This document shows positions 2,520 to 41,794 of a DNA stretch of 64,000 nt, piece after piece. Under the pieces are notes generated by a model that was not told the DNA's origin, did no database searches, and worked only from the letters and a program-made list of their open reading frames with translations. Numbering within the stretch: the first letter of the stretch is position 1; the number at the start of each line of letters is the position of its first letter. This DNA is from an uncultured Collinsella sp. (GTDB taxonomy: Bacteria > Actinomycetota > Coriobacteriia > Coriobacteriales > Coriobacteriaceae), in NCBI GenBank assembly GCA_900541145.1, contig UQIH01000012.1, positions 6,714 to 70,713 of the forward strand. The letters are read 5' to 3'. The translations under genes were made by a program, and so were the position numbers.

Positions 2520-4322
2520 TTACGCCTCCAAAAATGCGCCGGTCTGGCGGCCCCACAGGCTCGCATACTCGCCGCCCGCCTCGACAAGCTGCGCATGCGT
2601 ACCGTCCTCGACAATCTCGCCGTCCGCCAGCACCACGATGCGGTCGAGCGCCGCCACGGTGGACAGGCGATGTGCCACCACAATGGAGGTGCGGCCGCGC
2701 ATCAGGTTCTCGAGCGCCTCCTGCACCAGCGCCTCGGACTCACTGTCCAGGGCAGACGTCGCCTCGTCGAGCACCAGAATCGGCGCGTCGGTCAGGATAG
2801 CGCGGGCAATGGCCACGCGCTGGCGTTGGCCGCCCGAAAGCTTAACGCCGCGCTCGCCCACCATGGTGTCAAAGCCACGGGGCAGGCGGTCGATAAACTC
2901 CAGGGCATTGGCCAGACGCGCGGCCTCGCGGATCTGCTCGTCGGTGGCGTCGGGGCGTCCGTAGGCGATATTCTCGCGAATGGAGCGATGGAACAGCAGC
3001 GCCTCCTGCGGCACGTAGGCAACCTGGCGGCGCAGGCTCTGCTGCGTGCAGCGCGAGACGTCCTGGCCGTCCACGAGCACGCGGCCGCCCTGTACATCGT
3101 CCAGGCGCAACAACAACTTGGTGAGCGTCGTCTTGCCCGAGCCCGATTTGCCTACCAGGCCCACGCGCTGGCCCGCCGCCACGTGGAGCGTCAGGTCGTC
3201 GAACACGCTCTCGCCCGCCGCGGCGTCACGGTATGCAAAGCTCAGGTGCTCAAAATCAATCGCGCCCTCGCTTACTTTAAGCTCGGGAGCGTTCTCGTCG
3301 TCTGCCACCAGACGCGGCTCGTCCAGCACGCGCGTCATCTCGGCCGCATCACCGAGCGCGCGGTTGATGCGCTGCATCATGGAGCTTACGTAGTTCAGAC
3401 GCATGGTGAGGTTGTACGTATAGGTAAAGATCATGACGAGCGCACCGGCAGAGATGCCAAACCACGCGTTGCCGCCCGCCACGAACACACTCACCACGGC
3501 CATGGTGATGACGATGAGGCCCGAGGTCGTAAAGTTGCGCTGCATCATGGCGTGCATCGAGACCGTCTCGGCGTCGCGTGCAGCACGGTCAGCGGTATCG
3601 AACAGGTCGCGCTCAAAGTCCTCGCGCCCACAGGTCTTAACGGCCAGGATGTTCGTGACCGCGTCGGACAGCACGCCCGACAGCTTGTTCTGCGCAGCGG
3701 ACGTCGCGGCCGAAAGCGGCATGATGCGCTTGTACATAAGCCAGACAAACGCGATGTAGACGACCATAATGCCCACCAGGATCACGGTAAACGTCGGCAC
3801 CACCGGAGCGAGCGCCGCTACCGTGCAGACAACCGAGGTGATGGTGGGAATGAGCGAATACACCGTCACGTCCACCAGCCCCGTATAGCCGCTCATAAAA
3901 CGGCTTGTCTGGCTCACGAGCGATCCGCCAAAACGGCTGGTATGGAACGTCATGGATTGATTGGAGAGCGTGTCGAAGCACAGACGCGCCAAGTGATAGT
4001 TGCCCGCAATCTCGAGCTTGTAGACGGTGTAGTCCTGCAGCTTGGAGAGGATTTGGCCCACTAGGTTAACGAGCACGAGCGCCAGAATGTAAGGACCAAA
4101 GACCTCAAACACCTGGTCGCCTGCCACGGGACCGGCCTGGACGCGGTCGACGATGAGGGCCATCACATAGGTGTTGGCAAACGTGAGCAAAAAGATGTAG
4201 CCCGCCGACGAGAACACCGAGAGAAAGACGATCAGCGGCTGCGTGCGCGTGACGTCCCAAAAACGCTGCAGCGTGCGACGCACGGTGGAGCGTTTGAGCG
4301 GACTGGTGTTTCTCTGAGACAT
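2520..4322 (-). CDS. ABC exporter, fused permease/ATPase (MsbA/MdlB-like)
   Basis: Six-TM N-terminal half, Walker A GKSGSGKTT, signature LSGGQRQRVAIARA and Walker B ILVLDEATSALD. ATG at 4322 is preceded by GAAAGGAAG. Confidence 0.9.
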   Translation of the reverse strand: MSQRNTSPLKRSTVRRTLQRFWDVTRTQPLIVFLSVFSSAGYIFLLTFANTYVMALIVDRVQAGPVAGDQVFEVFGPYILALVLVNLVGQILSKLQDYTVYKLEIAGNYHLARLCFDTLSNQSMTFHTSRFGGSLVSQTSRFMSGYTGLVDVTVYSLIPTITSVVCTVAALAPVVPTFTVILVGIMVVYIAFVWLMYKRIMPLSAATSAAQNKLSGVLSDAVTNILAVKTCGREDFERDLFDTADRAARDAETVSMHAMMQRNFTTSGLIVITMAVVSVFVAGGNAWFGISAGALVMIFTYTYNLTMRLNYVSSMMQRINRALGDAAEMTRVLDEPRLVADDENAPELKVSEGAIDFEHLSFAYRDAAAGESVFDDLTLHVAAGQRVGLVGKSGSGKTTLTKLLLRLDDVQGGRVLVDGQDVSRCTQQSLRRQVAYVPQEALLFHRSIRENIAYGRPDATDEQIREAARLANALEFIDRLPRGFDTMVGERGVKLSGGQRQRVAIARAILTDAPILVLDEATSALDSESEALVQEALENLMRGRTSIVVAHRLSTVAALDRIVVLADGEIVEDGTHAQLVEAGGEYASLWGRQTGAFLEA

Positions 4323-4445
4323 GGGCTTCCTTTCGCGTCTGATAGGGCGAAACGCCATTGTTGCACACTAAAGCGCACTTCAGACAAGCGCGATGCGAAA
4401 AGCGCCCGCGCCGTGCTCGTACAGGCGCACAGCCGTCAGATGCAG

Positions 4446-5801
4446 CTAGTCCTCGTCTTTTTGGCCTGCGAGCAGCTCCGCGGATGTGAGTCCCAAGATC
4501 TCATCGGCTTGGTTGGCGTCTTCCAGCGCGTCGATGTCCTTGAGCTTGCGCTCCATGACATTGGTACGCGTGGTGATGATGCCCTCAACCGTTTTGCCCG
4601 CGGTCTCGATCTGCTGCTGGGCGCGGCGCAGCGCCGCCTGATAGCGTGGCAACTCGGCCTTGACAGCAGAGAGCACGCGCAGTACGTCGTCGGTACGTTT
4701 TTGCAGCCTAAACGTCTGGTAGCTCATCTGCAGGCTGTTGAGAATGGCAGCCATGGTGCTGGGACCGGCTACGTTGACGTGATAGTCGCGGCCCAGGGTC
4801 TCGATAAGCCCGGGGCGGCTGACGACCTCGGCGTACAGTCCCTCAAACGGCACGAACAGAATGCCAAAGTTGGTCGTCGCGGGCACACTCAGGTACTTTT
4901 CGCAGATGTCCTTGGCCTCGCGCTTCACCATCATATCGAGCGTCTTGCGTGCCGCGGCAACGGCCTCCGCATCGCCCGACTCCTGGGCGTCGAGCAGATG
5001 CTCGTACGCGTCGCCCGGGAATTTGGAGTCGATCGGCAGCAGCACGGGATCGCCCTCGTCCACCGGCAGCTTGACGGCAAACTCAACGCGCTCCGAGGCG
5101 CCGGGCTTGGTGGCGACGTTTTCCAGATACTGGTCGGGCGTAAGGATGTCCGTCAGGATCGCACCCAGCTGCACCTCGCCCAAAATACCGCGCGCCTTCA
5201 CATTGCCCAGCACGCGCTTAAGATCGCCCACGCCGGTGGCGATGGATTGCATGTCGCCCAGGCCCTTGTACACGGCCTCGAGCTGGTCGCTCACCTGCTT
5301 AAACGATGCCGACAGGCGATCGTTGAGCGTGCGGGAGAGCTTCTCGTCCACCGTTGCGCGCATCTGATCGAGTTGCACGTTGTTGTCTTTGCGGATAGCA
5401 CCCAGCTGGGCATCGACCGTCTCGCGCACCTTGTCCAGGCGGTGCTCGATGCCCTCGCGGTTGGCACCGAGCTGTTGGGCCGTCTCGCGGCGCAGGTCAT
5501 CCATCCGGTCACCAGCTTGCGAAAACTCACGTGCGATGGTCAGGTAACGTTGCTGCTCCACGGCCGCATCTGTCGTCTGCTGCTGCGCGATGGCATTGGC
5601 CGTGCGGCGAGTTTCGGCCAGCGCGACGTTCAGGGCATCGAGCGCGTTGTTGGCCTGCTCGAGTGCTGCCAGCGTTTCCGCGCTACTGTCGCCACGCCCC
5701 CGCAACTCGGCACGCAGGCTCTTGAGCTGGAGGGCGCAAGCCACAGCAACCCCCACCGCCACCAAGGCGATCGCAACAAGCACAATATCAATAGCAGACA
5801 T
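4446..5801 (-). CDS. rmuC: DNA recombination protein RmuC
   Basis: N-terminal TM segment, long coiled coil, and a C-terminal block GDMQSIATGVGDLKRVLGNVKARGILGEVQLGAIL...FVPFEGLYAEV typical of RmuC. ATG at 5801 has GGAG upstream. Confidence 0.85.
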   Translation of the reverse strand: MSAIDIVLVAIALVAVGVAVACALQLKSLRAELRGRGDSSAETLAALEQANNALDALNVALAETRRTANAIAQQQTTDAAVEQQRYLTIAREFSQAGDRMDDLRRETAQQLGANREGIEHRLDKVRETVDAQLGAIRKDNNVQLDQMRATVDEKLSRTLNDRLSASFKQVSDQLEAVYKGLGDMQSIATGVGDLKRVLGNVKARGILGEVQLGAILTDILTPDQYLENVATKPGASERVEFAVKLPVDEGDPVLLPIDSKFPGDAYEHLLDAQESGDAEAVAAARKTLDMMVKREAKDICEKYLSVPATTNFGILFVPFEGLYAEVVSRPGLIETLGRDYHVNVAGPSTMAAILNSLQMSYQTFRLQKRTDDVLRVLSAVKAELPRYQAALRRAQQQIETAGKTVEGIITTRTNVMERKLKDIDALEDANQADEILGLTSAELLAGQKDED

Positions 5802-9271: not shown

Positions 9272-9757
9272 CTATTCCTCCCGGTAAGCGTACGCGCAGG
9301 CAGCGTACTCGGGAAACGCATCGCGATCGGCGAACTTGGGATCGACGGCTGGGAACTGGCGATGGGCGACGATATCGCCGAGCGAAACGGAATCGAGGTA
9401 GTCGCGCATCAACGCCTGGGCTCCGGCCCACAGGGGATGATAGCAGCACACACCCATGCGCGCACAGTCACCATCGGGGGCGGTACAGTCGTTCATAACC
9501 ATAGGACCCTGAACGGCCTCGACGACCTGGCGGATAGTGACGTCGTCCGGACTGACCTTGAGACGCATGCCACCGTGGACGCCACGCAGGCTCTCCACAA
9601 TACCGGCCTGGACCAAACCGTGCTGAATCGAGCGGGCAAACGAATACGGAACATTGACCTCTTCGGCAGCGGTGCGAACAGAAAGCAAGCACTCCGGATC
9701 CTCGGCAAGCATCGCCAGCATACGAAGGGCGTAATCAGTCTTCCTCGATATGTCCAT
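9272..9757 (-). CDS. Rrf2 family transcriptional regulator
   Basis: MDISRKTDYALRMLAMLA... is an Rrf2 winged-helix N-terminus, and the C-terminal part is Cys-rich (CTAPDGDCARMGVCC). ATG 9757 is preceded by GAAAGGGGAAAA. The track start at 9865 adds 36 implausible residues. Confidence 0.85.
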   Translation of the reverse strand: MDISRKTDYALRMLAMLAEDPECLLSVRTAAEEVNVPYSFARSIQHGLVQAGIVESLRGVHGGMRLKVSPDDVTIRQVVEAVQGPMVMNDCTAPDGDCARMGVCCYHPLWAGAQALMRDYLDSVSLGDIVAHRQFPAVDPKFADRDAFPEYAACAYAYREE

Positions 9758-10081
9758 TTTTCCCCTTTCAAGGAATACGAACAGCTCGAACGAGCTCCGG
9801 GGCCGAGCTTGTGTCGAGACGCTAAATGACCGCCAGGACATCCAAATGGTAAATCGGATATCCACTGAGTGCCGCGCTTGGAGCGAAATGCATCAGATGC
9901 GGCGCACAGTGCAATTTAGTATAACCTAACCCCCTGTCTCGTAGAACAGGTGTTGCGCAACAAAGCTGTTGTTCAGACAGATATACTCATTAGATTTTAC
10001 TTGCGTTCCCGAAGGCGCGGGGGTTCTGGGCGAAGATGCACCAGGGCGATCGTTCTATCAAAACAAAGTGCATCAAACGCA

Positions 10082-10108
10082 AAAAGCCACGTCCGAAGAC
10101 GTGGCTTT
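10082..10108 (-). terminator. rho-independent terminator after tRNA-Asp
   Basis: The minus strand reads AAAGCCACGTC-TTCG-GACGTGGCTTTTT. Confidence 0.65.
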
Positions 10109-10116
10109 AATTGCGT

Positions 10117-10194
<78 letters not shown>

Positions 10195-10302
10195 AGGCAG
10201 TCGTTCGCGTTTGTTTCCGCTCGCGTGCGCTGCGGGGATTAGTATACACAGAAGTCTGTCCGGCGCGCAACAACTTTTTTGAAAAAATTTTTCGGTCCCT
10301 CC

Positions 10303-10447
10303 GGGAGGGCCTCCGGGGCCGGCGGGCGCGGGTTAAGTTTGCTGCTCTACAGTCCTGCGCAAGACGGAAAGCACATTAAGTGCTTTCCTTTGCGTGCGGA
10401 ACTCGCGACAAACTTAACCCGCGCCCGCCGGCCCCGGAGGCCCTCCC
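10303..10447. repeat. ~145-nt GC-rich extended hairpin
   Basis: GGGAGGGCCTCCGGGGCCGGCGGGCGCGGGTTAAGTTTG (10303-10341) is perfectly complementary to 10409-10447. There is also an inner hairpin GGAAAGCAC-ATTAA-GTGCTTTCC. Confidence 0.6.
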
Positions 10448-10603
10448 TGCCGTCACATTGTTCGAGCCGTTGTTGTTGCTCGCCGCTTCGCGGCTCGGCG
10501 GCCCCGTTCTCCGCGGCGGGGTTGTCTAAGGTTTTTGTTGAAGCCCGGCCATTGGCTCAAATGGAAACGGGGAACGCATCTGCATCCCCCGTTTTTGTTG
10601 CGG

Positions 10604-11071
10604 TTAGTCTAGGTCAATAAACTTGGTGCTTATGACATGGCCGTCTTTTACTAGCATTCTGGCCATGGTGGGGCCTCGGGTGCCTCTGGGGTAGCTGGCG
10701 CTGCCCGGGTTGAGGACTAAGCAACGGCCCACTTGGGCTTCTTTGGTTACGTGGGTGTGGCCGTTGATGGCTACGTCTACGGATCCCACCGGAAGGTCTT
10801 CGCGGTAGTGGGCTACGGCGAATTTAAGGCCTTCGTAGGTAAAGAGCGCAAGACGGTCTACATCGGGGCCGTAGTCGCGGTAGTAATCGTTGTTGCCCAG
10901 TACGGCCCGAACGGGGGCGATGGTGCATAGGTGCTCGTAGTCCATCTCTGACGTGAGGTCGCCGGCGTGGATAATCAGGTCTGCGCCCTCAAGCTCATCC
11001 AGGAGCGCAGGCGAAAGACAGCCGTGGGTGTCCGAGATGATGTCGATGCGCTTGGCGCTTGCACTGTTCAT
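10604..11071 (-). CDS. metallophosphoesterase, YfcE/MJ0936 family
   Basis: Contains the motifs ISDTHG, HAGD, GNND, NGHTH and NPGS. GGAAGGGA lies upstream of the ATG. Confidence 0.85.
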   Translation of the reverse strand: MNSASAKRIDIISDTHGCLSPALLDELEGADLIIHAGDLTSEMDYEHLCTIAPVRAVLGNNDYYRDYGPDVDRLALFTYEGLKFAVAHYREDLPVGSVDVAINGHTHVTKEAQVGRCLVLNPGSASYPRGTRGPTMARMLVKDGHVISTKFIDLD

Positions 11072-11167
11072 GGGATCCCTTCCGCAAAAAACGATTCGGC
11101 AGATACATACAAAAAAGGCCCCACGGCTCCGCAGACGATGGGTCTACAGGGCTGCGGGGCCAGTGTG

Positions 11168-11905
11168 CTAGAGACTCAGAGCCTTCTTGAGCGGCACGAC
11201 GCGGCGACGCGAAACCGGAACGCGTTCGTCGACGCCCGTAATGCCCAGCTGGATGGCACCCGAGGGCACCGTCTCCACATCCGTGACGCACGCCAAGTTG
11301 ACGATATAGCGGCGGTGAACACGGAAGAAGCCAAAGTCGCAGAGCTTGGCCTCAAACTGCGCCAGCGAGGTCGTCGACAAAAAGCGATCATCGACGGTAT
11401 AGATGCAGGAGTAATCGTCCTTGGCCATGATAAAGCGAATATCGTCCACGGGAATGAGCACCTTGCGGCCGCCCTTTTCCACCGGGATACGCTCGATGGT
11501 CACCTTGCTGTCCGTAACCGGCTTGGCGCGTTGCATGACCTTCTCGATCGCGCGATCCAAGCGAGCTTCCTCGACCGGCTTCATCAGATAATCGACGGCA
11601 TCCACGTCGAATGCCTCGACCGCATGGTCGCTATACGCAGTCACAAACACGATCGCCGGCGGATTTTTGAGCTTATGCAGCGCCTCGGCAAGTTGCAGGC
11701 CCGAGGCACCGGGCATCGAGATATCGAGAAACACGACATCCACGCGACTTTCCATAAGCATCTCGATGGCGGAGCGGACGCTCGACGCCTTCGTGATCGT
11801 GCCGATCTTGCCCGTTTGCTCGAGCAGGAAGCGAAGCTCCGAGCGAGCCGGCGCCTCATCATCCACAATCATCGCACGCAGCATAGGGATAAAACCTTTC
11901 GTCAA
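11168..11905 (-). CDS. LytR/AlgR (LytTR) family response regulator
   Basis: Receiver domain (IVDDE...DVVFLDISMPG) and a C-terminal LytTR domain (FFRVHRRYIVNL). The start may instead be the ATG at 11884 (MLRAMIVDDE). Confidence 0.9.
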   Translation of the reverse strand: MTKGFIPMLRAMIVDDEAPARSELRFLLEQTGKIGTITKASSVRSAIEMLMESRVDVVFLDISMPGASGLQLAEALHKLKNPPAIVFVTAYSDHAVEAFDVDAVDYLMKPVEEARLDRAIEKVMQRAKPVTDSKVTIERIPVEKGGRKVLIPVDDIRFIMAKDDYSCIYTVDDRFLSTTSLAQFEAKLCDFGFFRVHRRYIVNLACVTDVETVPSGAIQLGITGVDERVPVSRRRVVPLKKALSL

Positions 11906-28280: not shown

Positions 28281-31820
<3,540 letters not shown>

Positions 31821-32165
31821 ATACCCCTCTCCTCTCATATAGGTATACAGGCCCCGGCGATCGCCGGGATGTTGGCGTGATGGGATTTACGCTGTTGCTT
31901 CCAATCATCTGGCAGGCAGGCTCAGCAGCAGGTACGTGGCGTGGAGAGAAGACATGCCGAGGCGAGGGACAGCTGATGCGCCCCACAGACCCGACCGCCC
32001 GTCTTGCACATGACCGAGCGCCGCAAAGGCCGCATGCCGGATGCTCCCGGGCACGCCCCGGCGATGGGAAGCGCCCGCAACGGAAATCCGCATGCGGGTT
32101 TATTGTACCCCGCCGTTAAGTGTAATTTCGACAAATATAGGCGGGCGGTAAAGGTTTACCTCGGG

Positions 32166-32700
32166 TGACCGCCAAAGGCCAGAATGGTCCCTCCATCCCC
32201 GGACGACTGGCTCTGACGCGCCAAGGAGTGTCCCCAAGTACCGGCAGGAAAGGAACGTCCCTAACTGCCGGCTAGAGGGCGCCGAGCAGGATGGCGTAGG
32301 TGGTGGATTCGCCGAGTTTGAGCTCGTCGCCGGGGTTGAGCTGGGCGGAGCGGCCGGGCTCTACTTGAATACACACACTCGTGGCCCCGTTTACCACCAC
32401 GGTGCCGTTAGTGGACGACAGGTCCTCGACAAACCATGCGCCAGACTCGTCGCACCAGATATGGGCATGGCGGGCCGAGACGTCGTCGGTGATGCCGCCC
32501 TCCCCCGTTGCCAGCGCGCCGATCTCAACGCCTTCCTCACTCGGCTGAATCCAGCGCGGGACGCTCACCACGTAGCCGTTTTGCACGCACAGCAGTCCCA
32601 GCGGATGCGCCGGCGCGACCTCGTGCTCGCCCGCGACCGAAGATGTGCTCAGCGAGCGCGGCGTCGACGTGTCGCCGCCACGGGTCGCATGAGCGCGGCG
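32166..32700. repeat. left copy of a ~535-bp diverged direct repeat (3' end of the FHA gene plus ~105 nt downstream)
   Basis: Aligns with 38902-39445 at a constant offset of 6736 nt up to a 9-nt indel. Identity is roughly 80-90% by eye. Confidence 0.8.
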
Positions 32701-32745
32701 GCTCGCCCGACTTGGAACTAAGGCGGGCGTGAGAGCAAACGGCAT
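32272..32745 (-). pseudogene. truncated FHA-domain gene fragment (C-terminal ~140 codons only)
   Basis: ...AHATRGGDTSTPRSL...HIWCDESGAWFVEDLSSTNGTVVVNGATSVCIQVEPGRSAQLNPGDELKLGESTTYAILLGAL parallels the C-terminus of 39008..39946. It has no N-terminal domain and no RBS. Confidence 0.7.
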
Positions 32746-33261
32746 AGGGAACGAATCTTGCGGATGTACTCCTCGACGTCAGGCAGGTAAGCCCCACGAA
32801 GTCACCGGGGAGGCCCAAGCGGCCCGGCACCACTTCCAGATTCTGACCAGGGCGAGTCGTTCGCCGGTGGCTGAAGGCTCGCTCCCACCCAAAAGGGGAG
32901 ATTCGCGTTGTTCCCCAATCGCTCTCGCATCTTTCATTTTGCTCGAGGTGGGCTATGAAAACTTTCCTGGTGAAAGGCGGCGATTGGTTTCCTTTCTTTC
33001 TAGAGGAGCGCGCCTGTAATCTGTTTTCATCCTAAATCAAGTTAAGATCGGACCTTCCAGAGGCAAGTCGACTCAAACTGCGAGGCTCCATGTTGGAATA
33101 AAGAGCGCTGTCGAAGTGCCAACAACACAAAGCTTGCCAGTCTCAAATAGAACCTTTTGGGAGTCCGATTGGGCCGCACACCGAATCCCCGCTGGTGGTT
33201 TTTTATAGCTGCGCGACAATAAACAAGGTTAGTGCCAGTCCAGCATGAAATTGAGGAACGT

Positions 33262-34620
33262 ATGCATTTTTTCTCAGTAAGTGATCGTCGTTACTGCTTC
33301 GATGAGGTCACTCGCAATTGCTTTCAGGTTGACCAAGCATCAGAAGATGCGCTTCGCATATTTGAAGCATCGGGAAGAACGGTCAACTCGAAGTTGCTAA
33401 CAAAGTCACTTGCTGCGAAAGGCTACGACCAAACGACCATAGCAGAACTTGAAGACGACATTGATGAGTATCAACGATTGTCTGAGCGGACTTTCTTAAC
33501 AAAAGACACGCCTCGAAAACTTAGATCCATCGAACTCCACGTTTCACATGCATGCAACCTTGGTTGTAGTTACTGTTTTGCCGGTAAAGGAGATTATGGA
33601 ACGTCTCCTCTGCTGATGACAGACGAGATAGCCTTCAAGGCGGTCGACTACCTCGTCGCAAGTTCATCGGAAAACGAAACGCTTGCGATCGTCTTTTTTG
33701 GTGGGGAACCCATGATTAACGAGCCGCTGATATGAAAAACGGTCGACTATTCAAAAAGAATATACCCCAATAGAAACTTTACCTATTCTATTACGACCAA
33801 CGGAACGCTTTTGAATGACACTGCTGTGAATTCTTTCAAGGAGCACGGGTTTTCTGTTCTGATTAGTCTCGATGGTACAGGATGCAAGCACGATGCATCG
33901 CGCCCGTACAAGACGGGAGGCGGCTCTTTCTCCGATATCGACAAAAACGTTCGTCGTTTTTCCGAGTCGTTCCCCTTCGGCGCAAGAGCGACCTTAACAA
34001 ATATTAACTGTAACCTTGTTGAAGACTATCTTCAGTTTAAAGAGATGGGCTTCAGAAGGATTTACTTCTCGCCCGTGAGCTCATTCGATGAGAATATCAA
34101 ACTCGACGAACACTCATTAAACAAAATCAGGGCGGGCCTAATAGATTTGGCGGATCAATATCTCAAACAGATTGATCAAGGGGAAAAGCCCTTGTTTAGA
34201 ACATTGAAAACTGCAGTTGATTTGATTATGAGCAACAGGATCGCCTTTGTCGGATGCGGGGCTGGCAGGCGTTTTATTTCCGTGACTCCCGAAGGGGACG
34301 TATACCCCTGTCACAGGTTTGTCGGGATGATGCGATTCAAAATGGGCAACATCGTCACCGGAATTGACGAAACTAGGTATATTGAAAACTGGAGTCAGGG
34401 TGTCGAAAAAAGAATTGACTGTACGGACTGTTGGGCTCGGTCTTTCTGTGGTGGGGGCTGTAGCTGGGAGGCTGCAGACGAGCACGGCTACTTGCCCAAG
34501 AGTCTACACCCTGCATCATGTGAATATAGAAAAATGTGCTACGAGATGGCTTTTGACCTTATTTCCCGCCACTCATCTTCGCAGGAGAAAAATCAACGAG
34601 AAGCTACTGTATCGGAATAA
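33262..34620 (+). pseudogene. radical SAM/SPASM peptide maturase with N-terminal RRE-like region, interrupted by one in-frame TGA (33733-33735)
   Basis: Contains CNLGCSYCF (CxxxCxxC), FFGGEPMINEPLI-TGA-KTVDYSKRIYPNRNFTYSITTNGTLL in the same frame, and the SPASM motifs CGAGRRFISVTPEGDVYPC and CTDCWARSFCGGGC. The track splits it into 33232..33735 and 33811..34620. GAGGAA lies upstream of ATG 33262. Confidence 0.85.
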
Positions 34621-34789
34621 GCGGTTCAGCGCATTGCTGTCACCATTGTGGAGGTGTTCGTTCTTCTGATTACCGTCTGCGAAGCTTATTGCTACATTCG
34701 CCGAAACCATTCTAGAAATATGGTGAACTAGACATCTTGGTTTGTTATACACAATATTGAGGTTTTTCTGCACTCAAAGGGAGGTAGTC

Positions 34790-34993
34790 GTGAAGCATAT
34801 TCATCCGATTAATCCAGGAAGTGGCGACGAGGCAGGCGTGAAGCCGATGTCTTTTGACTGCCTCTTGGGCATTACTGACATCTGTACTGTTTATGATAAA
34901 GCAGATGGCTGTGGTGCATACGATTACTGCGACTATGACATGGATGGCGGCAGCATCTGCGTTGTAGATCACTGTGGCATTGATCAAACGTAG
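34790..34993 (+). CDS. Cys/Asp-rich RiPP precursor-like peptide A1 (67 aa)
   Basis: GTG at 34790 lies 6 nt after AGGGAGG. Sequence: MKHIHPINPGSGDEAGVKPMSFDCLLGITDICTVYDKADGCGAYDYCDYDMDGGSICVVDHCGIDQT. It has 6 Cys and 11 Asp and lies directly downstream of the rSAM gene. Confidence 0.7.
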   Translation: MKHIHPINPGSGDEAGVKPMSFDCLLGITDICTVYDKADGCGAYDYCDYDMDGGSICVVDHCGIDQT

Positions 34994-35023
34994 TCTCTAA
35001 TTGGATTAAGGTGAGGAGCTGTT

Positions 35024-35203
35024 ATGAAGCATATCCATCCTGTTGGTTCAAATGAACATCCTCCCGTTGAGCCTTGTTGTCTTGGAGTTGATATATGCAA
35101 TTTTTACGACATCGCCGAGTGCCCTGTTGCGGATTGGTGCTATGTCGATAAAGAATCAAGCTGTGTTTTGCCAGCAGATTGGTGCGATCCAGTTGACGAG
35201 TAG
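35024..35203 (+). CDS. Cys/Asp-rich RiPP precursor-like peptide A2 (59 aa; below the ORF-track cutoff)
   Basis: ATG at 35024 lies 6 nt after GGTGAGGAG. Sequence: MKHIHPVGSNEHPPVEPCCLGVDICNFYDIAECPVADWCYVDKESSCVLPADWCDPVDE. It shares MKHIHP and the block C-LG-x-DIC-x-x-YD with A1. Confidence 0.7.
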   Translation: MKHIHPVGSNEHPPVEPCCLGVDICNFYDIAECPVADWCYVDKESSCVLPADWCDPVDE

Positions 35204-35281
35204 TTTTGTGGCTAGGAACTATTTGGTCCAATTCAGAATAAGATGGGAACAAATACCAAAATCTCGTGTCTGGGAGGAGTT

Positions 35282-35389
35282 ATGCCATTATTGCAAGGTC
35301 TCGTTGGATTAGCCTTTATACTTGCGTTATATCTGGCACCTTTTTTAATTCTATTCTTCATTATCCGACTCTTTCTTCGGAGAAAATAG
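35282..35389 (+). CDS. 35-aa hydrophobic peptide (single TM, basic C-terminus)
   Basis: ATG at 35282 lies 2 nt after GGGAGGAG. Sequence: MPLLQGLVGLAFILALYLAPFLILFFIIRLFLRRK. It is not in the ORF track. Confidence 0.4.
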   Translation: MPLLQGLVGLAFILALYLAPFLILFFIIRLFLRRK

Positions 35390-35454
35390 GAGTGTCACGC
35401 AAACATTAGCGTAGCTTTCTTCCAATATGAGCCGAGCATTGGCAAGTGGAATAA

Positions 35455-35504
35455 GAAGCCCGACCGTTCGCCACATGAAAGTGATCGGACGGGCTTCTCT
35501 ATTT
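35455..35504 (+). terminator. possible terminator of the peptide operon
   Basis: GAAGCCCGACCG ... CGGACGGGCTTC (12-bp stem with one mismatch) followed by TCTATTT. The T-tract is weak. Confidence 0.35.
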
Positions 35505-36089
35505 AACCCGGGCCGCCACCCATAGCGGCTTTCCAAGCGTATTCTCAGTGCAAAGCAATCGTCAGTTTAATCCTATGCGCTGATACCGCATTTCATTTGT
35601 TCGGCTCGAATTCTACGGCCTGGCAACCCTCGCACTCTCCGGCAAATGGATTGAACGCGAAGGCAGAGATGATGTGTGCGTGGACATCGAGGCTGCTGTA
35701 GGCAACATACTGGGACATGGACCCCCGCTGCGCGTGGTATGCGGCCCGGCATATTCATTGCCGTCCAACCCCGTGTAGTTGCAGCAAAGGGTGGAACCTC
35801 AATGCTCAGCTCATGTTGTCCGTGGGACACGAGAATCGTAAGTACACTTTGGTGCGATTCTCACGCTGATACTGAGCCACCTGGAATAAGATACGTCGCG
35901 ACAACACTTCGCTTCACCTCTGTCTCGACAAGATGACGTAGACTAAAGTTTCCTTTAGTAAGAGAACGAGAACTATATCTGAAAGCGTTGCGATGGCGTG
36001 AAGGCACCGAGTCCGAACCGCCTGAATGCTACGTGCATCTGCATCGCCTTTTTGTTATCTCTGCCAGTTGGGTAGCACTACACTTGTCA

Positions 36090-37742
36090 TCATTTACCCT
36101 GGTACATGCTGCCTAAATCCACTACCCCTTCTACCGCGCCGACCATCTCGTCATCGTGAGAGACAACGATGATCAGCTGGCTTTGCTTGTTGCGCTTAAC
36201 ATAGGCCGCAAGCTCGGCGCGGCTTACAGCGTCTAACCCAGTCGTGGGCTCGTCGAGTACCAAAACTGACGACTTGCGTGAAATCGCCGACCATAAGTAC
36301 ACTCGGCGCAGCTCACCGCCCGAAAGCGCGGAGCAACGTTTCCCGAGCAACTCCTTCACGCTGTTTTCCAGCGAAAGTAGGCCATCTACACCCCGGTGAT
36401 AGGAAGAAAAGGGCGTGTCGAAATACTCTAACAGCTCTTTCACCGTTTCGTCCGGCGCGAAGCACGACTGTGGGCAGCACGATATCTCTCTCGCACGTAT
36501 GTAATCCAAGTCGCATTCTTCGATTGGCACGCCGTTGTATTTTACTTTGCCTTTCGATGAGTATAGCCCGAGCATCAAGTAAAGAAGTGACGTCTTGCCT
36601 CTTCCGTTTTCCCCAACTATGCAATATGTACCAGGACCGGAAAACTTGAAAGAAAACCCGCCGAGGACCTCTCGGACAGATCCGTCTGGAAGGGCAACCG
36701 AGAATTCCAAATCAGATACCGAAATGTCATTTATTTCATCGAGTTTAGCTAAATCGGTCCGATTCCACCCCGATCTCTCCTTTTCTCTCGTCGCGATAGC
36801 CGTCCTATCCCATGATGCTTTGGCATCTTGATAGGATTTGAACAATGACATCATACTTTTCAAAGTCTTAAAGAGAACCGCGAAGTATGTACCGATGATA
36901 GTGTACTCGCCTATTGACATAGTTCCGTTAATGATTCGTACTCCGGAAACAACAAGTATCACCGCTTGAAACAACGCTGCGAAAAGACCATCGAGCGATG
37001 TCAGAGAATATGATAGCTTTCCGGAGCGCAAAACTTTGGGAAAATAGCTCTTAAACCCAGCGTCGAGCGCTTGTTCGCTCTTGCCGTACGAAGATGCCAG
37101 TTGAATGTTGAGAATCTGATTAAGCTGCGATGCAATTGCGGCGTAAAAGGCGCTGTCCGCCTCTTTCTTCTCATACGTGACCCTATACAAAAGTTTCCTC
37201 AACCCAGTAATTACACAGAAATACACGATGAGGAGAATGATGGAAAACACCGCGAGAGTTGAATCAATTGACCATATGATAAGCAATACGATGGGAATAG
37301 CTACAATGGACAGCGGCGCACTGATGAAATTCGCCAAAACGAAGGATGAGACCACGCTGGAGTCGGAAATAATCCGTTGCGTTGTATAGGCTGGATCGAT
37401 GGTCCGACTCACCAAGTAATCGTCTCTTTCAAAACGCAAGACGGCCTCCCTGAGAAGATCAAAGGAAAGTCTCGTGCTTATGCGAATGGAAAGTGTTCCT
37501 GCAAAATAAGTAAAGAGGGTGGAGAAAACTCCTATTGACGCAACCAGGAGTGCGAAGAGTGCGGCGTCTCTTTCGCTGCGGTTACCGAGAAGAAAATCTA
37601 AAAATTTTCCGTTCACGTATGGCATGGCATAGGAGAGAGCGGTTCCAATCACCGTGATAGCAATGAAGACGAAAGCCCCTTTTGCTCTGATGAACCTCGA
37701 GAGAACGCATCGAATCAAGGAAGGCCCCAATCTACCCGCCAC
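36090..37742 (-). CDS. ABC exporter, fused permease/ATPase, with no N-terminal peptidase domain
   Basis: Six-TM N-terminal half, Walker A GENGRGKTSL, signature LSGGELRRVYLW and Walker B VLVLDEPTTGLD. It is low-GC and ends in TGA TGA. Confidence 0.85.
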   Translation of the reverse strand: MAGRLGPSLIRCVLSRFIRAKGAFVFIAITVIGTALSYAMPYVNGKFLDFLLGNRSERDAALFALLVASIGVFSTLFTYFAGTLSIRISTRLSFDLLREAVLRFERDDYLVSRTIDPAYTTQRIISDSSVVSSFVLANFISAPLSIVAIPIVLLIIWSIDSTLAVFSIILLIVYFCVITGLRKLLYRVTYEKKEADSAFYAAIASQLNQILNIQLASSYGKSEQALDAGFKSYFPKVLRSGKLSYSLTSLDGLFAALFQAVILVVSGVRIINGTMSIGEYTIIGTYFAVLFKTLKSMMSLFKSYQDAKASWDRTAIATREKERSGWNRTDLAKLDEINDISVSDLEFSVALPDGSVREVLGGFSFKFSGPGTYCIVGENGRGKTSLLYLMLGLYSSKGKVKYNGVPIEECDLDYIRAREISCCPQSCFAPDETVKELLEYFDTPFSSYHRGVDGLLSLENSVKELLGKRCSALSGGELRRVYLWSAISRKSSVLVLDEPTTGLDAVSRAELAAYVKRNKQSQLIIVVSHDDEMVGAVEGVVDLGSMYQGK

Positions 37743-38057
37743 AAAACATCAATCACTGATACCTTACACCTCAACACAACAGGAGCGAAGATTTGCCAAT
37801 GAGACTGCTTTAAGATTGCCTTGGGCCAATACGGTCTCAAGCTCTTCCTACAAGAGAGTCGGAATCGGACATCTCCTCCGACGAATCTGGCAATCGGGCG
37901 ATTGAAATATCTTTTTCAACCGCCCGATTGCCACAATAGATTGGAGCGTCCGCCCGCAAACGACCTCGTTTTACACCCACCAAATCCTTTGCCTTTTGTC
38001 GCCTAGGCTAGAAAAATCGCTCGAAATAACGCAACCGGCCTGCTCGCTTGAAGAAAC

Positions 38058-38773
38058 CTAAGCCCGTAACGTAGATGTGCAAACTTCCGAAACGCCTTGC
38101 GCGGCATAGTGCGTATAAACTTCGTCAACCGCCTCAGAAATATCTGAGTATCGCGCCGGGTCAAAAGCATACGATGTCGCAGCTATACCCTGCACCCATT
38201 CGGAACGCGGATTAATTGAATAGCCACACAGCATCATCATACATGCATCTAGACCTGATTTCCCAAGTATCCGACGTATTGATGAGAGCATCGCGGGTCG
38301 CCCCTGCACCATCGTCGTCACCCCTATTAGCAGTATTTACCGTTTTTCTCTAAATGCGTATCGCCACCCTTAAGAATACGAAGTGTTTTATCCAGACCCG
38401 ATTGTCCTCCATCTCAAACGAAGGGATAAGGAATCTCATCCGGAATCGGCAGTAACGGAGGATTCACAACGACAAGCGAAAAACATGAGTCATCTCTCAG
38501 AGGGGAGTAAAGGCTCCCCTCAAGCACCCTAGTTTCGTCATCCAAAGAGTTGATGGCAGTGTTTTTCTTACAAAGGTCGACAACAAAAGGGTTGATTTCT
38601 ACAGATGTTACATCCATGCCACAGTTGGTAAGTATCAGGCCCTGTATTCTGGGGCCAGAACACAAATCGAGAGCCTTCCGTGCGCTCTGCGGTGTAAGGC
38701 GCCAATCTCAGCAAATCTGTCCCACAATACTGCGCTGAAGAACAAGACGGAACCCCTGAGCCAAACTCCCCTA
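38058..38773 (-). pseudogene. decayed class I SAM-dependent methyltransferase (HemK/MTS-like)
   Basis: Contains LDLCSGPRIQG (motif I) and VVVNPPLLP (NPPY-like), then PFV-TGA-DGGQSGLDKTLRIL in frame, a second in-frame TGA at 38708-38710, and a 1-nt frameshift near 38330 (EKNGKY / LLIGVTT). The track shows fragments 38414..38665 and 38058..38321. Confidence 0.7.
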
Positions 38774-38901
38774 TACCTTATTAAGGCTAAGACAGGCAAG
38801 TTCACGCACCCGGCATATTCCAGAATAACATCCTATTGTTTTAGATGCTCTACAAGCATGAACAGCCGCGAATCGGAAAGATCTTCTAGTTTCGCCCCGA
38901 C

Positions 38902-39445
38902 TGACCGCCAAGGGCCAAAATGGCCCCTCCATCCCCGGGCGACTGGCTCTGGCGCGCCGAGGAGTGTCCCCAAGTGCCGGCAGAAAAGGAACGTCCCTAA
39001 CTGCCGGCTAGAGGGCACCGAAGAGAATGGCGTAGGTAGTGGATTCGCCGAGCTTGAGCTCGTCGCCGGGATTGAGTTGGGCGGAACGGCCGGGCTCGAC
39101 CTGAATGCAGACGCGCGTGGCCCCGTTTACCACCACGGTTCCGTTGGTGGACGACAAGTCCTCGACGTGCCAGATATTTTGAGCATCGCACCAGATATGG
39201 GCATGGCGGGCCGAGACATCGTCGCCGACGTCGGTAATATCGCCCTCACCAGTGGCCAGCGCGCCAATCTCAACACCCTGCTCACTCGGCTGAATCCAGC
39301 GCGGGGCGCTCACGACAAAACTGTTATGCACGCGCAGCAAGCCCAAGGGGTGCGCCGGGGCGGGTTCGCGTTCGCCCGCAGTCAGCGACATGCCAAGCGA
39401 ACGCGGCGTGGATGCGCCTCCGCCACAGGTCGCGTGTGCGTAGTC
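38902..39445. repeat. right copy of the diverged direct repeat
   Basis: See 32166..32700. This copy forms the 3' end of the intact FHA-domain gene plus its downstream region. Confidence 0.8.
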
Positions 39446-39946
39446 GATGGCATAGTTCACCGAGGACCGCACATCCGCCGAACAACCGACGGCGACAAAC
39501 AGCACCAGCACGGCCTCGGCGCGCTCGGCGGGCATGAGTTCCGCCGCCTGGGACAGGCGATCGAGCGCGTTGCGATAGAGATTCGTGTCCTGGTGGCACT
39601 CTTCGAGCGCGCGTACCATCGGTTCACCTGCAGGACCGCACACCATATTGATCACAGCCGTGGAGTCCATGGGATTGCGCTGGCGCAGGGCCAGTTGCAA
39701 CATAATACGCGCAGCCGAGGTACCGTATTCGGCAAAGTAGCGCTGCTGAAGCGTGCCGACCGGCGCGCGAACGATAAAGCGGGAAACCCAAGAGCGATCG
39801 GCGGCTCGGCTCTGCGGGCTGCGGCCGTCGGCGAGCGGACGGGACGAAAGCACCAAACCGCACAGCTCGATATGGCTCAGATGCGCTGCGCGCTTAAAGA
39901 TGTCAAACATGGCCCCGCATGGGGTGAGCTCAACTTGAGATGCCAT
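39008..39946 (-). CDS. FHA domain-containing protein with an uncharacterised N-terminal domain
   Basis: C-terminal FHA motif (ARHAHIWCD...WHVEDLSSTNGTVVNG...L.PGDELKLG). It lies 3 nt downstream of the kinase gene stop. Confidence 0.85.
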   Translation of the reverse strand: MASQVELTPCGAMFDIFKRAAHLSHIELCGLVLSSRPLADGRSPQSRAADRSWVSRFIVRAPVGTLQQRYFAEYGTSAARIMLQLALRQRNPMDSTAVINMVCGPAGEPMVRALEECHQDTNLYRNALDRLSQAAELMPAERAEAVLVLFVAVGCSADVRSSVNYAIDYAHATCGGGASTPRSLGMSLTAGEREPAPAHPLGLLRVHNSFVVSAPRWIQPSEQGVEIGALATGEGDITDVGDDVSARHAHIWCDAQNIWHVEDLSSTNGTVVVNGATRVCIQVEPGRSAQLNPGDELKLGESTTYAILFGAL

Positions 39947-39949
39947 GAC

Positions 39950-41794
39950 CTAGGCCTCCTTGGTCGTAGAAATAGAATCGGACGATACTTCGACAGGTCC
40001 GCCAAAAGTACGGGCAGCTGCGGCTCCACCGGCAAGCGGAGTCGCCATCTGGGCTTTTGTGCGTCGCGGTGCCGAAACGGGAAGTTCAAAGGCAAAGCCC
40101 ATCGCAAGCAAAAACCACGTAAGCGTATAGGTTGCAACCAGAGCGGCAACAAGGCCGCCCATCACGGCGCGTTGGGAAAATACGCTACATGCAGCCACAA
40201 CCAGCACCGGAACCTCGCAGGCAGAAAGCGCAAGCACACCCTGCAGGAAGCCCGAGCGCCGATCGCGCGCAAGTGCCCCCGCGGCAACGCCGGCTATGCC
40301 TGGCAGCGCCAACGCCAGTGCGGCAATAATACCCGGTAGCGACCCAGACCACACGAGCGATCCCAAAGTCGCCGTCACGCGAGCGCCCGACGCCAGCAGC
40401 GCGGCCGAAACCACGACCACAGCCCAAACCACGCCACAGACGACCGTCGCGCCGACCATCAGCGCGCGACGAACCACACGGCCAGACGCATCCATGGGGC
40501 ACGGCGTGAGCGGCTCGCCGCGGAGCGAACGACCGACATTTTGCGCATAGTGGTCACAAAACGCCGAGAGCGCCGCCTTGACCGCCGCCGGCTCGGGACG
40601 ATCTTTTTGATGGCTGGACAGACAGGCCATCACCACGTCGAACAGCTGGGCATCGACAAACGCCAGCGCATCGCGTAGCTCTTCGGAATCCGGCTCAAGC
40701 CCTAGCTGCTGGGCCTGCTCGGCCGCGGCGAGCGCCACATCGGGCTCACGACGAAGCAGCTGAGTCAAATCACAACCGGGCGCATGGGCACCAATAGGAT
40801 AGTCGGGCCGCGTGTCCATCTTGAGACGGTAGGGGCTCGCGATGTCGCGCGTCTTTTTGCGCGAACCCGAGGCACCCGAAGTACTCGGCGCGGCTTCGTA
40901 TGGCGCGACGCCGGCAATGAGCTCGTAAACCGTGCTTGCCGCGGCGTATACGTCAATCGCCGGCGACATACGCAAAGCGCGCAGGTCGGGAATATCGTCG
41001 GTGAGCATCTCGGGCGGGGCATAGGCAACCGTCGCGCGACGCAGCGTGGCATAGCGCTCCGTAAACGACGCCTTGCCGCCGGTACCGGCCACGGCCGACG
41101 CAGGCTCGAGCGCCAGCGACGAGCCAAAGTCGATCAGGCACAGGTCAAAGGTGCCCTCGGCAAGCTGCCGGTCAAGCGGTAGACGCGCCGTACGCACCAT
41201 AATATTAGCGGGCGAGATATCGCGATGGACAAAGCCCTCACCCACCAGGCTCATACGGCAGAGCAGATCGAACAGGTCGCGACCCAGACGCGCCGCCACA
41301 AGCGGCGACAGGCGTCCGGCATCGTCCACGGCGAGTCGCGAGCGCAAGCGGGCGAGCGTCTCGCCCTCGACCCATTCCATGACAATTGCAGGCACACCGT
41401 CAACCTCGCCCCAGCCATAGAGGCGGGGAAAGCCCTTAAGGCCCGAAAGGGCGCGATGGCATTCGTATTCCTCGCGAAATGCCGCTTTGAACTTGGCGAC
41501 CAGCGACTCATGGGCGGCATCGTCGTCAAACTCATCGCGCGTCGGCAAGATGAGCTGTTTGAGTGCTACGTCCTCGCCTTGGGCGTTGACAGCACGCGTC
41601 ACGCGGCCGATACCGCCACGGCGCATGGTGGCATCGTCGGCAAACAGTATCGTAAAACGACGCAGATAGGCAGGCAGTTCGTCCTGACCGAGCGCAATGG
41701 CCGGCTCAAACCCGTCGACACGCGCCAGGCGCAGGCCGACCATGGGATCGCGACCGAGCGATTGTGGTGTGGTGGATGCAAGATCGGTCATCAT
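39950..41794 (-). CDS. Ser/Thr protein kinase with a polytopic C-terminal membrane region
   Basis: Contains VALKQL (catalytic Lys), HRDISPANIMV, DFGSS and APE. The C-terminal ~200 aa contain four to five hydrophobic segments. Confidence 0.9.
   Translation of the reverse strand: MMTDLASTTPQSLGRDPMVGLRLARVDGFEPAIALGQDELPAYLRRFTILFADDATMRRGGIGRVTRAVNAQGEDVALKQLILPTRDEFDDDAAHESLVAKFKAAFREEYECHRALSGLKGFPRLYGWGEVDGVPAIVMEWVEGETLARLRSRLAVDDAGRLSPLVAARLGRDLFDLLCRMSLVGEGFVHRDISPANIMVRTARLPLDRQLAEGTFDLCLIDFGSSLALEPASAVAGTGGKASFTERYATLRRATVAYAPPEMLTDDIPDLRALRMSPAIDVYAAASTVYELIAGVAPYEAAPSTSGASGSRKKTRDIASPYRLKMDTRPDYPIGAHAPGCDLTQLLRREPDVALAAAEQAQQLGLEPDSEELRDALAFVDAQLFDVVMACLSSHQKDRPEPAAVKAALSAFCDHYAQNVGRSLRGEPLTPCPMDASGRVVRRALMVGATVVCGVVWAVVVVSAALLASGARVTATLGSLVWSGSLPGIIAALALALPGIAGVAAGALARDRRSGFLQGVLALSACEVPVLVVAACSVFSQRAVMGGLVAALVATYTLTWFLLAMGFAFELPVSAPRRTKAQMATPLAGGAAAARTFGGPVEVSSDSISTTKEA

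Follow-up and report, generated by a model that had tools for sequence, protein, structure and literature searches.

The closest described counterparts of the locus considered here are peptides made on ribosomes and modified after translation (RiPPs) whose radical S-adenosylmethionine (rSAM) maturases form non-alpha thioethers. PapB, the maturase of the Paenibacillus polymyxa ranthipeptide freyrasin (PapA), connects Cys to the beta-carbon of Asp in six CX3D motifs, accepts CXnD spacings of n = 0-6 and requires the Cys to lie upstream of the Asp (PMC9413430). QhpD forms Cys-Asp and Cys-Glu links, the SCIFF maturases resemble QhpD, and NxxcB links Cys to an upstream Asn (PMC8326336). One survey, which took the SCIFF precursor model TIGR03973 as its rule for calling ranthipeptides, reported none in Actinomycetota (PMC13289728). 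Here, we analysed a 64,000-nucleotide stretch of contig UQIH01000012.1 from an uncultured Collinsella sp. (hereafter, the window), in which two small paralogous genes, A1 and A2, directly follow an rSAM/SPASM gene on a low-GC island. We propose, with a probability of about 0.68, that A1 and A2 are the two precursors of a RiPP cluster carrying predicted rSAM-installed Cys-Asp thioethers. To our knowledge, characterised ranthipeptides are few, and most of them have no known function.

A1 (34790-34993, plus strand) starts with GTG and encodes 67 residues, including six Cys and 11 Asp (MKHIHPINPGSGDEAGVKPMSFDCLLGITDICTVYDKADGCGAYDYCDYDMDGGSICVVDHCGIDQT), and A2 (35024-35203, plus strand) starts with ATG and encodes 59 residues with seven Cys (MKHIHPVGSNEHPPVEPCCLGVDICNFYDIAECPVADWCYVDKESSCVLPADWCDPVDE). 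The A1 start, which is ATG at 34790 in one Collinsella genome, lies 169 nt beyond the stop of the rSAM/SPASM gene, and a gap of 30 nt separates A1 from A2; both starts are preceded by a strong Shine-Dalgarno sequence (GGGAGG, 6 nt 5' of the start, for A1; GAGGAG for A2). The two peptides share the N-terminus MKHIHP(I/V) and the block C-LG-x-DIC-x-x-YD. Every Cys is followed by an Asp 2-5 residues downstream, and exact C-x3-D motifs occur twice in A1 (CTVYD, CGAYD) and four times in A2 (CLGVD, CNFYD, CPVAD, CDPVD). In A1, approximately residues 1-20 form the leader; the core carries three C-x(n)-D-x-C-x(2-3)-D modules with a total of six Cys and as many conserved Asp, and these modules recur in A2. 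The cores are about 20% Asp, with 10-11 acidic residues (Asp plus Glu) and a single basic one (Lys plus Arg). In all these respects, from lengths, starts and motifs to the strong acidity, the sequence agrees with the preliminary description of the pair. The seven Cys ascribed to A2 were also counted correctly; however, the extra Cys18 is replaced by Tyr in close orthologues, so that the family number, judging from the alignment, is six rather than seven.

The Cys-then-Asp pattern inside a single peptide is only moderate evidence, because Asp is so abundant in the cores. In 100,000 shuffles of each core, the arrangement in which all Cys have an Asp at x2-5 was matched for A1 with p = 0.04 and for A2 with p = 0.004; the combination of this pattern with the count of D-x-C gave p of about 3e-4 for each peptide. 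Conservation across homologues is the decisive evidence that the pattern exceeds chance. A codon-level comparison was made among the window and two orthologous loci, L001 and L002 (73% and 67% maturase identity), in which the maturase is followed by A1 and A2 orthologues in the same order. Synonymous differences are saturated (pS 0.83-1.0), with pN of 0.11-0.24 in the cores and 0.35-0.51 in the leaders, which is a clear sign of strong purifying selection on the cores. In the set of 70 Collinsella genomes, the cores hardly vary, and nearly all of the few substitutions fall in leader positions 8-14. By these measures A1 and A2 are real coding genes.

Word-indexed searches with A1 and A2 returned near-identical copies and one A2 relative at 67% identity, and nothing else. 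Searches with the maturase recovered relatives at 73, 67, 56, 52, 48, 44, 43 and 41% identity, followed by a plateau at about 33% that consists mostly of annotated SCIFF maturases. Inspection of the distant loci, combined with a profile search in which 1.84 billion representative proteins were screened (16 matches at E <= 1e-3, one of which is a zinc-finger false positive), yielded a set of 21 peptides from about 11 lineages, with maturases 33-100% identical. The co-occurrence of peptide and rSAM gene that the preliminary description proposed to look for in other genomes was thereby found, and the rSAM gene adjoins the peptides in every locus with enough flanking DNA. In the alignment of the 21 peptides, M1, H3, Cys1 to Cys4 and Cys6 are invariant, as are the Asp that follows Cys3, the one that precedes Cys6 and the final one; in three more Asp columns, conservation reaches 90% or more. 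All 21 peptides have Cys5, but it is divided between alignment columns. Most members carry a Pro 2-4 residues ahead of Cys1, and the core, with its six conserved Cys, spans 40-46 residues. The family signature is an M-K-H-I leader, a Pro and then three C-x(2-6)-D-x-C-x(2-3)-D modules, which together amount to six Cys and six Asp. The Cys-Asp spacing ranges from x2 to x6, being nearly always x3 just at Cys2 (18 of 21) and Cys3 (20 of 21). Throughout the set, a variable leader precedes a nearly invariant core, and the earlier view of A1 and A2 as precursor-like is borne out by this architecture, by their status as conserved coding genes and by their position, in all lineages examined, beside an RRE-rSAM-SPASM enzyme and an ABC exporter.

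The two paralogues define two types, which differ at the C-terminus: C-G-(I/T)-D-x-(T/N/R) in the A1 type and D-[WY]-C-D-P-x-D in the A2 type. Orthologues of both types occur in L001, L002, L095, L097 and L010, and a further A1-type orthologue is P0144. Including the window, the pair is found in at least six lineages; L009 also encodes two precursors, and at least one distant lineage (L093) has a single one. Given that the A1 and A2 types recur together down to about 42% maturase identity, the pair is, on this distribution, older than that divergence. The most distant members, from L093 and L096 (33% maturase identity), start with MKHIKLLN, close to the SCIFF start, and are less acidic. On the L096 contig (GC 0.41; 3423-4462 and 9429-11437), two MKHIKLLN... 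precursors have the same six-Cys/Asp modules but contain basic residues; the contig also encodes a Y1 transposase, as well as two more rSAM genes located around an open reading frame (ORF) of 63 aa. L096 may represent a donor-type lineage linking the A1/A2 family to SCIFF.

The maturase gene (33262-34620, plus strand) starts at the ATG at 33262 (MHFFSV...), as in all orthologues, and is interrupted by an internal stop codon (see below). The enzyme was therefore examined through an intact orthologue, P0011, which has 452 residues, is 99% identical and belongs to a cluster of 4315 member sequences. It has an N-terminal RiPP recognition element (RRE) followed by rSAM and SPASM domains, and neither the CX3CX2C motif nor any of the seven SPASM Cys varies within the maturase clade. 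Among all curated NCBIfam models, the best-scoring for P0011 is PapB (NF047865; 272 bits, cutoff 340), followed by the SCIFF maturase (TIGR03974; 266.5 bits, cutoff 425), the nif11 maturase (260 bits, cutoff 519) and QhpD (TIGR03906; 241 bits, cutoff 453). Two other maturases, P0030 and P0036, likewise score below the cutoffs of the PapB model (270 and 277 bits) and of the SCIFF maturase model (255 and 305 bits), and the QhpD scores of the maturases tested range from 241 to 313 bits, again below the cutoff. Among solved structures, that of the SCIFF maturase CteB is the nearest in sequence (E = 1.8e-64). An AlphaFold2 model (predicted local distance difference test, pLDDT, 85; predicted template modelling score, pTM, 0.86) contains an N-terminal RRE-like domain of three strands and three helices and superposes on CteB over about 443 columns with a TM-score of 0.80-0.87. 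The arrangement by which ranthipeptides are recognised at the gene level, an RRE-rSAM-SPASM maturase of the ScfB/PapB/QhpD clade adjoining a Cys-containing precursor, is thus present. In two loci, a second rSAM/SPASM gene was observed (L007, 4441-6301; L008, 4357-5691). In L007, whose main maturase is 48% identical to that of the window, this gene is followed by an A1-type precursor cut off by a transposase. The second rSAM is 27% identical to P0011 and, being unrelated, was rejected as a part of the core system.

The freyrasin system resembles the A1/A2 clusters in that each of six Cys has an Asp partner downstream, and the spacing tolerance of PapB (n = 0-6) covers all spacings in the A1/A2 family. 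The analogy with freyrasin drawn in the preliminary description is strengthened by this conserved pairing and by PapB being the best curated match of the maturase. By contrast, the A1/A2 maturase falls under the 340-bit PapB cutoff, and the precursors are built of three composite modules rather than of the plain CX3D repeat of PapA, which was compared by its description. Further differences include the SCIFF-like MKHI leader, the two paralogous precursors and the strongly acidic cores, as well as the host, which belongs to Bacillota for freyrasin and to Coriobacteriia for A1/A2.

The resemblance to SCIFF peptides (TIGR03973/PF13165; CteA/CteB, Tte1186a) includes the leader, M-K-H-I-x-x-(I/L/V) versus MKHIKTL, the number of conserved Cys, six within some 45 core residues, although their spacing and context differ in A1/A2, and the RRE-rSAM-SPASM architecture of a maturase whose closest solved structure is CteB. 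The cores of SCIFF peptides, however, are rich in Gly, Ser, Thr and Lys, with Thr the known acceptor, and are encoded by single housekeeping-like genes in Clostridia, unlike the Asp-rich cores of A1/A2, encoded by paired genes on an island with export genes. A SCIFF control peptide from L092 (MKHIKTLTGK...) matched TIGR03973 with 85.1 bits (cutoff 50), whereas this model gave no match for A1 or A2 at E <= 1 or for three distant family members at E <= 10; PF13165 did not match A1 or A2 at E <= 1 either. In an hhalign comparison of the family with the SCIFF profile, only residues 1-10 were aligned, with a probability of 21%. The SCIFF-like leader noted at the outset is therefore real but confined to the first 10 residues, the match to the SCIFF models that was to be looked for did not materialise (TIGR03973 negative for A1 and A2; TIGR03974 below its cutoff), and membership in SCIFF was rejected.

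QhpD, of the QhpD/QhpC system for the maturation of quinohemoprotein amine dehydrogenase, is an rSAM/SPASM enzyme of the same clade as the A1/A2 maturase, but its substrate is an enzyme subunit rather than an exported peptide; no qhp genes were found near the A1/A2 cluster, where the neighbours are precursors and ABC transporters only. The streptococcal ranthipeptide system NxxcA/NxxcB is likewise a non-alpha thioether RiPP, and its upstream acceptor, N-x-x-C, resembles the D-x-C of A1/A2; unlike A1/A2, NxxcA has a single cross-link, to Asn, and the NxxcB maturase family is not among the 25 best-scoring models listed for the A1/A2 maturase. Two divergent, co-encoded precursors conserved as a pair are also typical of two-peptide bacteriocins, such as thuricin CD and the two-component lanthipeptides. 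For thuricin CD, a sactipeptide, two rSAM enzymes are employed, whereas a single maturase is present for both A1 and A2. Overall, by analogy with these systems, the design with six Cys and six Asp fits PapB-type chemistry best.

The results above establish coding status, conservation of the family, gene context and the class and fold of the enzyme; thioether chemistry, ring topology, removal of the leader and biological activity are predictions, for which we suggest the following scheme of biosynthesis. The N-terminal RRE domain of the maturase would bind the conserved M-K-H-I leader. Each of the six Cys in the core would have its sulfur joined to the carbon of a nearby conserved Asp from which the enzyme had abstracted a hydrogen; by analogy with PapB and QhpD, this would be the beta-carbon. 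The product would contain up to six thioether rings per peptide, grouped into three modules in tandem, each of two rings (C-x(2-6)-D-x-C-x(2-3)-D). After modification, these very acidic peptides would be exported by an ABC transporter lacking a C39 peptidase domain, and some protease would cut off the leader in the vicinity of the conserved Pro, which precedes the first Cys by 2-4 residues. A small membrane protein encoded downstream of A2 is a candidate immunity or accessory factor. Because the pair of A1-type and A2-type precursors is conserved, the two products might act together, as a two-peptide bacteriocin or signal. The proposal in its entirety, namely, that an anionic two-component pair, processed by one maturase into three tandem bicyclic modules each (six Cys-S-Asp-C-beta links) and encoded on a horizontally acquired island, acts jointly as a bacteriocin or signal and defines a distinct ranthipeptide subclass missed by standard mining, is tentative, and we consider it more probable that some part of it will need revision than that all of it holds.

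Several observations weigh against the proposed scheme. The D-x-C motif is equally conserved and would also be compatible with an acceptor upstream of the Cys, as in NxxcA, and modification may in reality be aimed at the conserved aromatic residues (D-[WYF]-C, x-Y-D). The maturase scores below the cutoff of every named family, so that no reaction can be assigned to it with confidence by transfer. Strongly anionic peptides are atypical among membrane-active bacteriocins. The Collinsella cluster contains no leader protease. Finally, the maturase frame is disrupted in 7 of the 70 Collinsella genomes, including the window, which hints that the system is dispensable.

The disruption in the window is an in-frame TGA (33733-33735, plus strand), which shortens the maturase at residue 158 of 452. 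A conserved Trp codon, TGG, has here been turned into a stop: position 33735 is A in the window alone and G in all 69 other Collinsella genomes aligned, and orthologues read EPLIWK at this site. Judging from this comparison, the TGA is either a strain-specific nonsense mutation or a base-call error. Recoding as selenocysteine or otherwise was rejected, given that all 69 other genomes have a Trp codon here and that the position is not one of a Cys. Because the TGA replaces a Trp codon of the 69 other genomes, the maturase is probably inactive, and the mature product probably not made, in the window strain, unless the UGA is read through. Six more disrupted maturases, frameshifted or truncated and accompanied by intact A1 and A2, were observed (L057, L059, L074, L077, L080 and L083; L080 is an isolate genome), and these represent either recurrent loss or assembly errors.

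We consider it slightly more probable than the opposite that the locus in the window is a decaying relic, in which A1 and A2 are unmodified or not made and have no function in this strain. The TGA unique among 70 genomes, the frameshifted maturase genes of the six others and the already degraded methyltransferase gene of the island (see below) are consistent with decay. Nevertheless, the maturase is intact in 63 of 70 genomes, the genes for A1, A2, the small membrane protein and the ABC exporter are intact in the window, and the stop codon may be a single-base sequencing error or be read through at a low level by tRNA-Trp. Decay, moreover, concerns the strain and not the family; it is compatible with A1 and A2 being RiPP precursors, and its likelihood is not to be summed with those of the other alternatives.

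That the same RiPP system employs another radical chemistry, such as Cys-S-alpha-carbon links (sactionines), aromatic cross-links (cyclophanes) or another modification of Asp, with the six Cys forming disulfides or binding metal, appears unlikely. Such a reading would accommodate a maturase that lies under all curated cutoffs, in a class of rSAM/SPASM enzymes that is chemically diverse, and the aromatic residues that flank most Cys (D-[WYF]-C, Y-D); weaker matches to the sactipeptide maturase RumMC (118 bits) and the cyclophane synthase YhhB (78 bits) point the same way. However, three of the top four models, PapB, the SCIFF maturase and QhpD (241-272 bits), describe non-alpha thioether formers, and the bit scores of the top four are two to three times those of the sactisynthases and cyclophane synthases, all of which remain below 120 bits for P0011. 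The closest fold is that of CteB, and it is the Cys and Asp that are invariant in the family, whereas the aromatic residues are not.

Still less credit can be given to A1 and A2 as small Cys/Asp-rich metal-binding or redox peptides that are not rSAM substrates. Six Cys and many carboxylates would suit metal binding, and there is a weak, sub-threshold match to Pfam SapA (E = 0.006), yet the leader-plus-core architecture with its SCIFF-like MKHI start, the strict adjacency to an RRE-bearing rSAM gene in about 11 lineages despite changing gene order and site, and the presence in the clusters of exporter- and immunity-type genes rather than metal-homeostasis genes make this very improbable. The idea that these short ORFs, unnamed in any source, arose by chance in an intergenic region can be dismissed, being ruled out by the dN/dS comparison of the window, L001 and L002, in which synonymous sites are saturated and the cores conserved, and contradicted by the strong Shine-Dalgarno sequences and by orthologues down to 33% maturase identity.

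With Cys-Asp-linked RiPP precursors thus favoured, the A1/A2 family is best read as a new two-precursor, strongly acidic ranthipeptide-like subfamily with composite Cys/Asp modules. No Pfam or NCBIfam model covers A1, A2 or their relatives, and a literature search, outside which lie the RODEO supplementary ranthipeptide lists, yielded no paper that contains the A1/A2 sequences or links Collinsella or Coriobacteriia to such a cluster, although an unnamed listing in the RODEO dataset is possible. This agrees with the suggestion of an undescribed subclass in the preliminary description, the interpretation of which is supported as far as sequence analysis goes. Because the peptides do not match TIGR03973, microbiome surveys that use this model as their rule would miss the family. 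Its host, Collinsella, is very common and among the most prevalent human gut genera. The family offers a clean testable case, with six Cys facing six Asp in a repeated module, and the natural nonsense and frameshift variants among isolates are ready negative controls. Peptide stapling, for which PapB is already useful (PMC9413430), could also profit from a maturase installing two neighbouring rings per module.

The cluster resides on a low-GC island (32750-38888, approximate boundaries) with a GC content of 0.475 (0.44-0.55 along it), compared to 0.60-0.66 in the flanks. Downstream of A2, the island encodes a hydrophobic, single-pass membrane protein of 35 residues from the ATG at 35282 (35282-35389, plus strand), preceded by the Shine-Dalgarno sequence GGGAGGAG. 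This ORF is intact from the ATG in 70 of 70 Collinsella genomes, with an upstream stop in one, and its hydrophobic orthologues in L001 (10408-10581) and in L002 (7988-8107) are placed alike. The protein has no family match and is a candidate immunity or accessory protein. Converging on the precursor operon is a gene for an ABC exporter of 550 residues with fused permease and ATPase (36090-37742, minus strand), which lacks an N-terminal C39 peptidase domain; its alignment to NCBIfam models of peptidase-containing bacteriocin ABC exporters begins at about profile position 150. Orthologues of the exporter adjoin the cluster in L001, L002, L009, L010 and L097, and in both L001 and L002 the order is maturase, A1, A2, small hydrophobic ORF and convergent ABC exporter. 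The distant clusters add an ABC ATPase and permease, an Rce1-like CPBP protease, an ABC exporter and a helix-turn-helix regulator, a gene set typical of bacteriocin production and immunity. At the right end of the island lies a split remnant of a small-domain methyltransferase gene (38058-38665, minus strand; PF05175, E = 8e-5); in L041, the sole other Collinsella genome checked, this stretch also contains no ORF of at least 90 aa. A weak promoter-like site, TAGACA-18-AATATT (34729-34758, plus strand), was found by consensus scan before A1. Site counts in promoter and terminator scans of the region were not above the shuffled expectation, a hairpin after A2 was no better than in shuffled sequence (z = -0.68), and scans of the island for tRNA genes and Rfam or other structured RNAs found none.

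In L001, L002 and L010, the orthologous cluster is also of low GC within high-GC flanks and occupies different genomic sites, which indicates repeated horizontal acquisition from a lower-GC donor. The host chromosome of the cluster is that of Collinsella (C. aerofaciens complex): the maturase is found at 97-100% identity in at least 78 GTDB species-representative genomes, nearly all labelled Collinsella or Coriobacteriaceae. At least 56 of these genomes carry the island at the same site, with a median identity of 99.5-99.7% compared to 98.5% for a flanking pyruvate:ferredoxin oxidoreductase (PFOR)-like gene. A recent spread of the island among Collinsella species is unsupported, given the shared site and an identity just slightly above that of PFOR. 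Carriage by a phage or plasmid was likewise discarded, with no relative in IMG/VR and no megablast match in PLSDB. The same cluster at 99.8% identity was also observed on a 5.4-kb contig binned as Oscillospiraceae (L047, CAVEDI010000271.1), which is probably a binning error rather than gene transfer.

No integrase was found at the island, which is bracketed by direct repeats of about 550 nt that are 77-90% identical and 6736 nt apart. The left copy (32152-32695) corresponds to a truncated FHA-domain ORF (32272-32745, minus strand) and the right copy (38888-39440) to the 3' portion of a complete FHA-domain gene (39008-39946, minus strand; 312 aa), so that the repeats look like a target duplication or replacement at the insertion site. 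The neighbours of the island, identified by reading the translations, are the PFOR-like gene (28281-31838, minus strand; 1185 aa) and, beyond the full FHA-domain gene, a Ser/Thr protein kinase-like gene (39950-41794, minus strand). The FHA-domain and kinase genes may constitute a signalling pair interrupted by the island.

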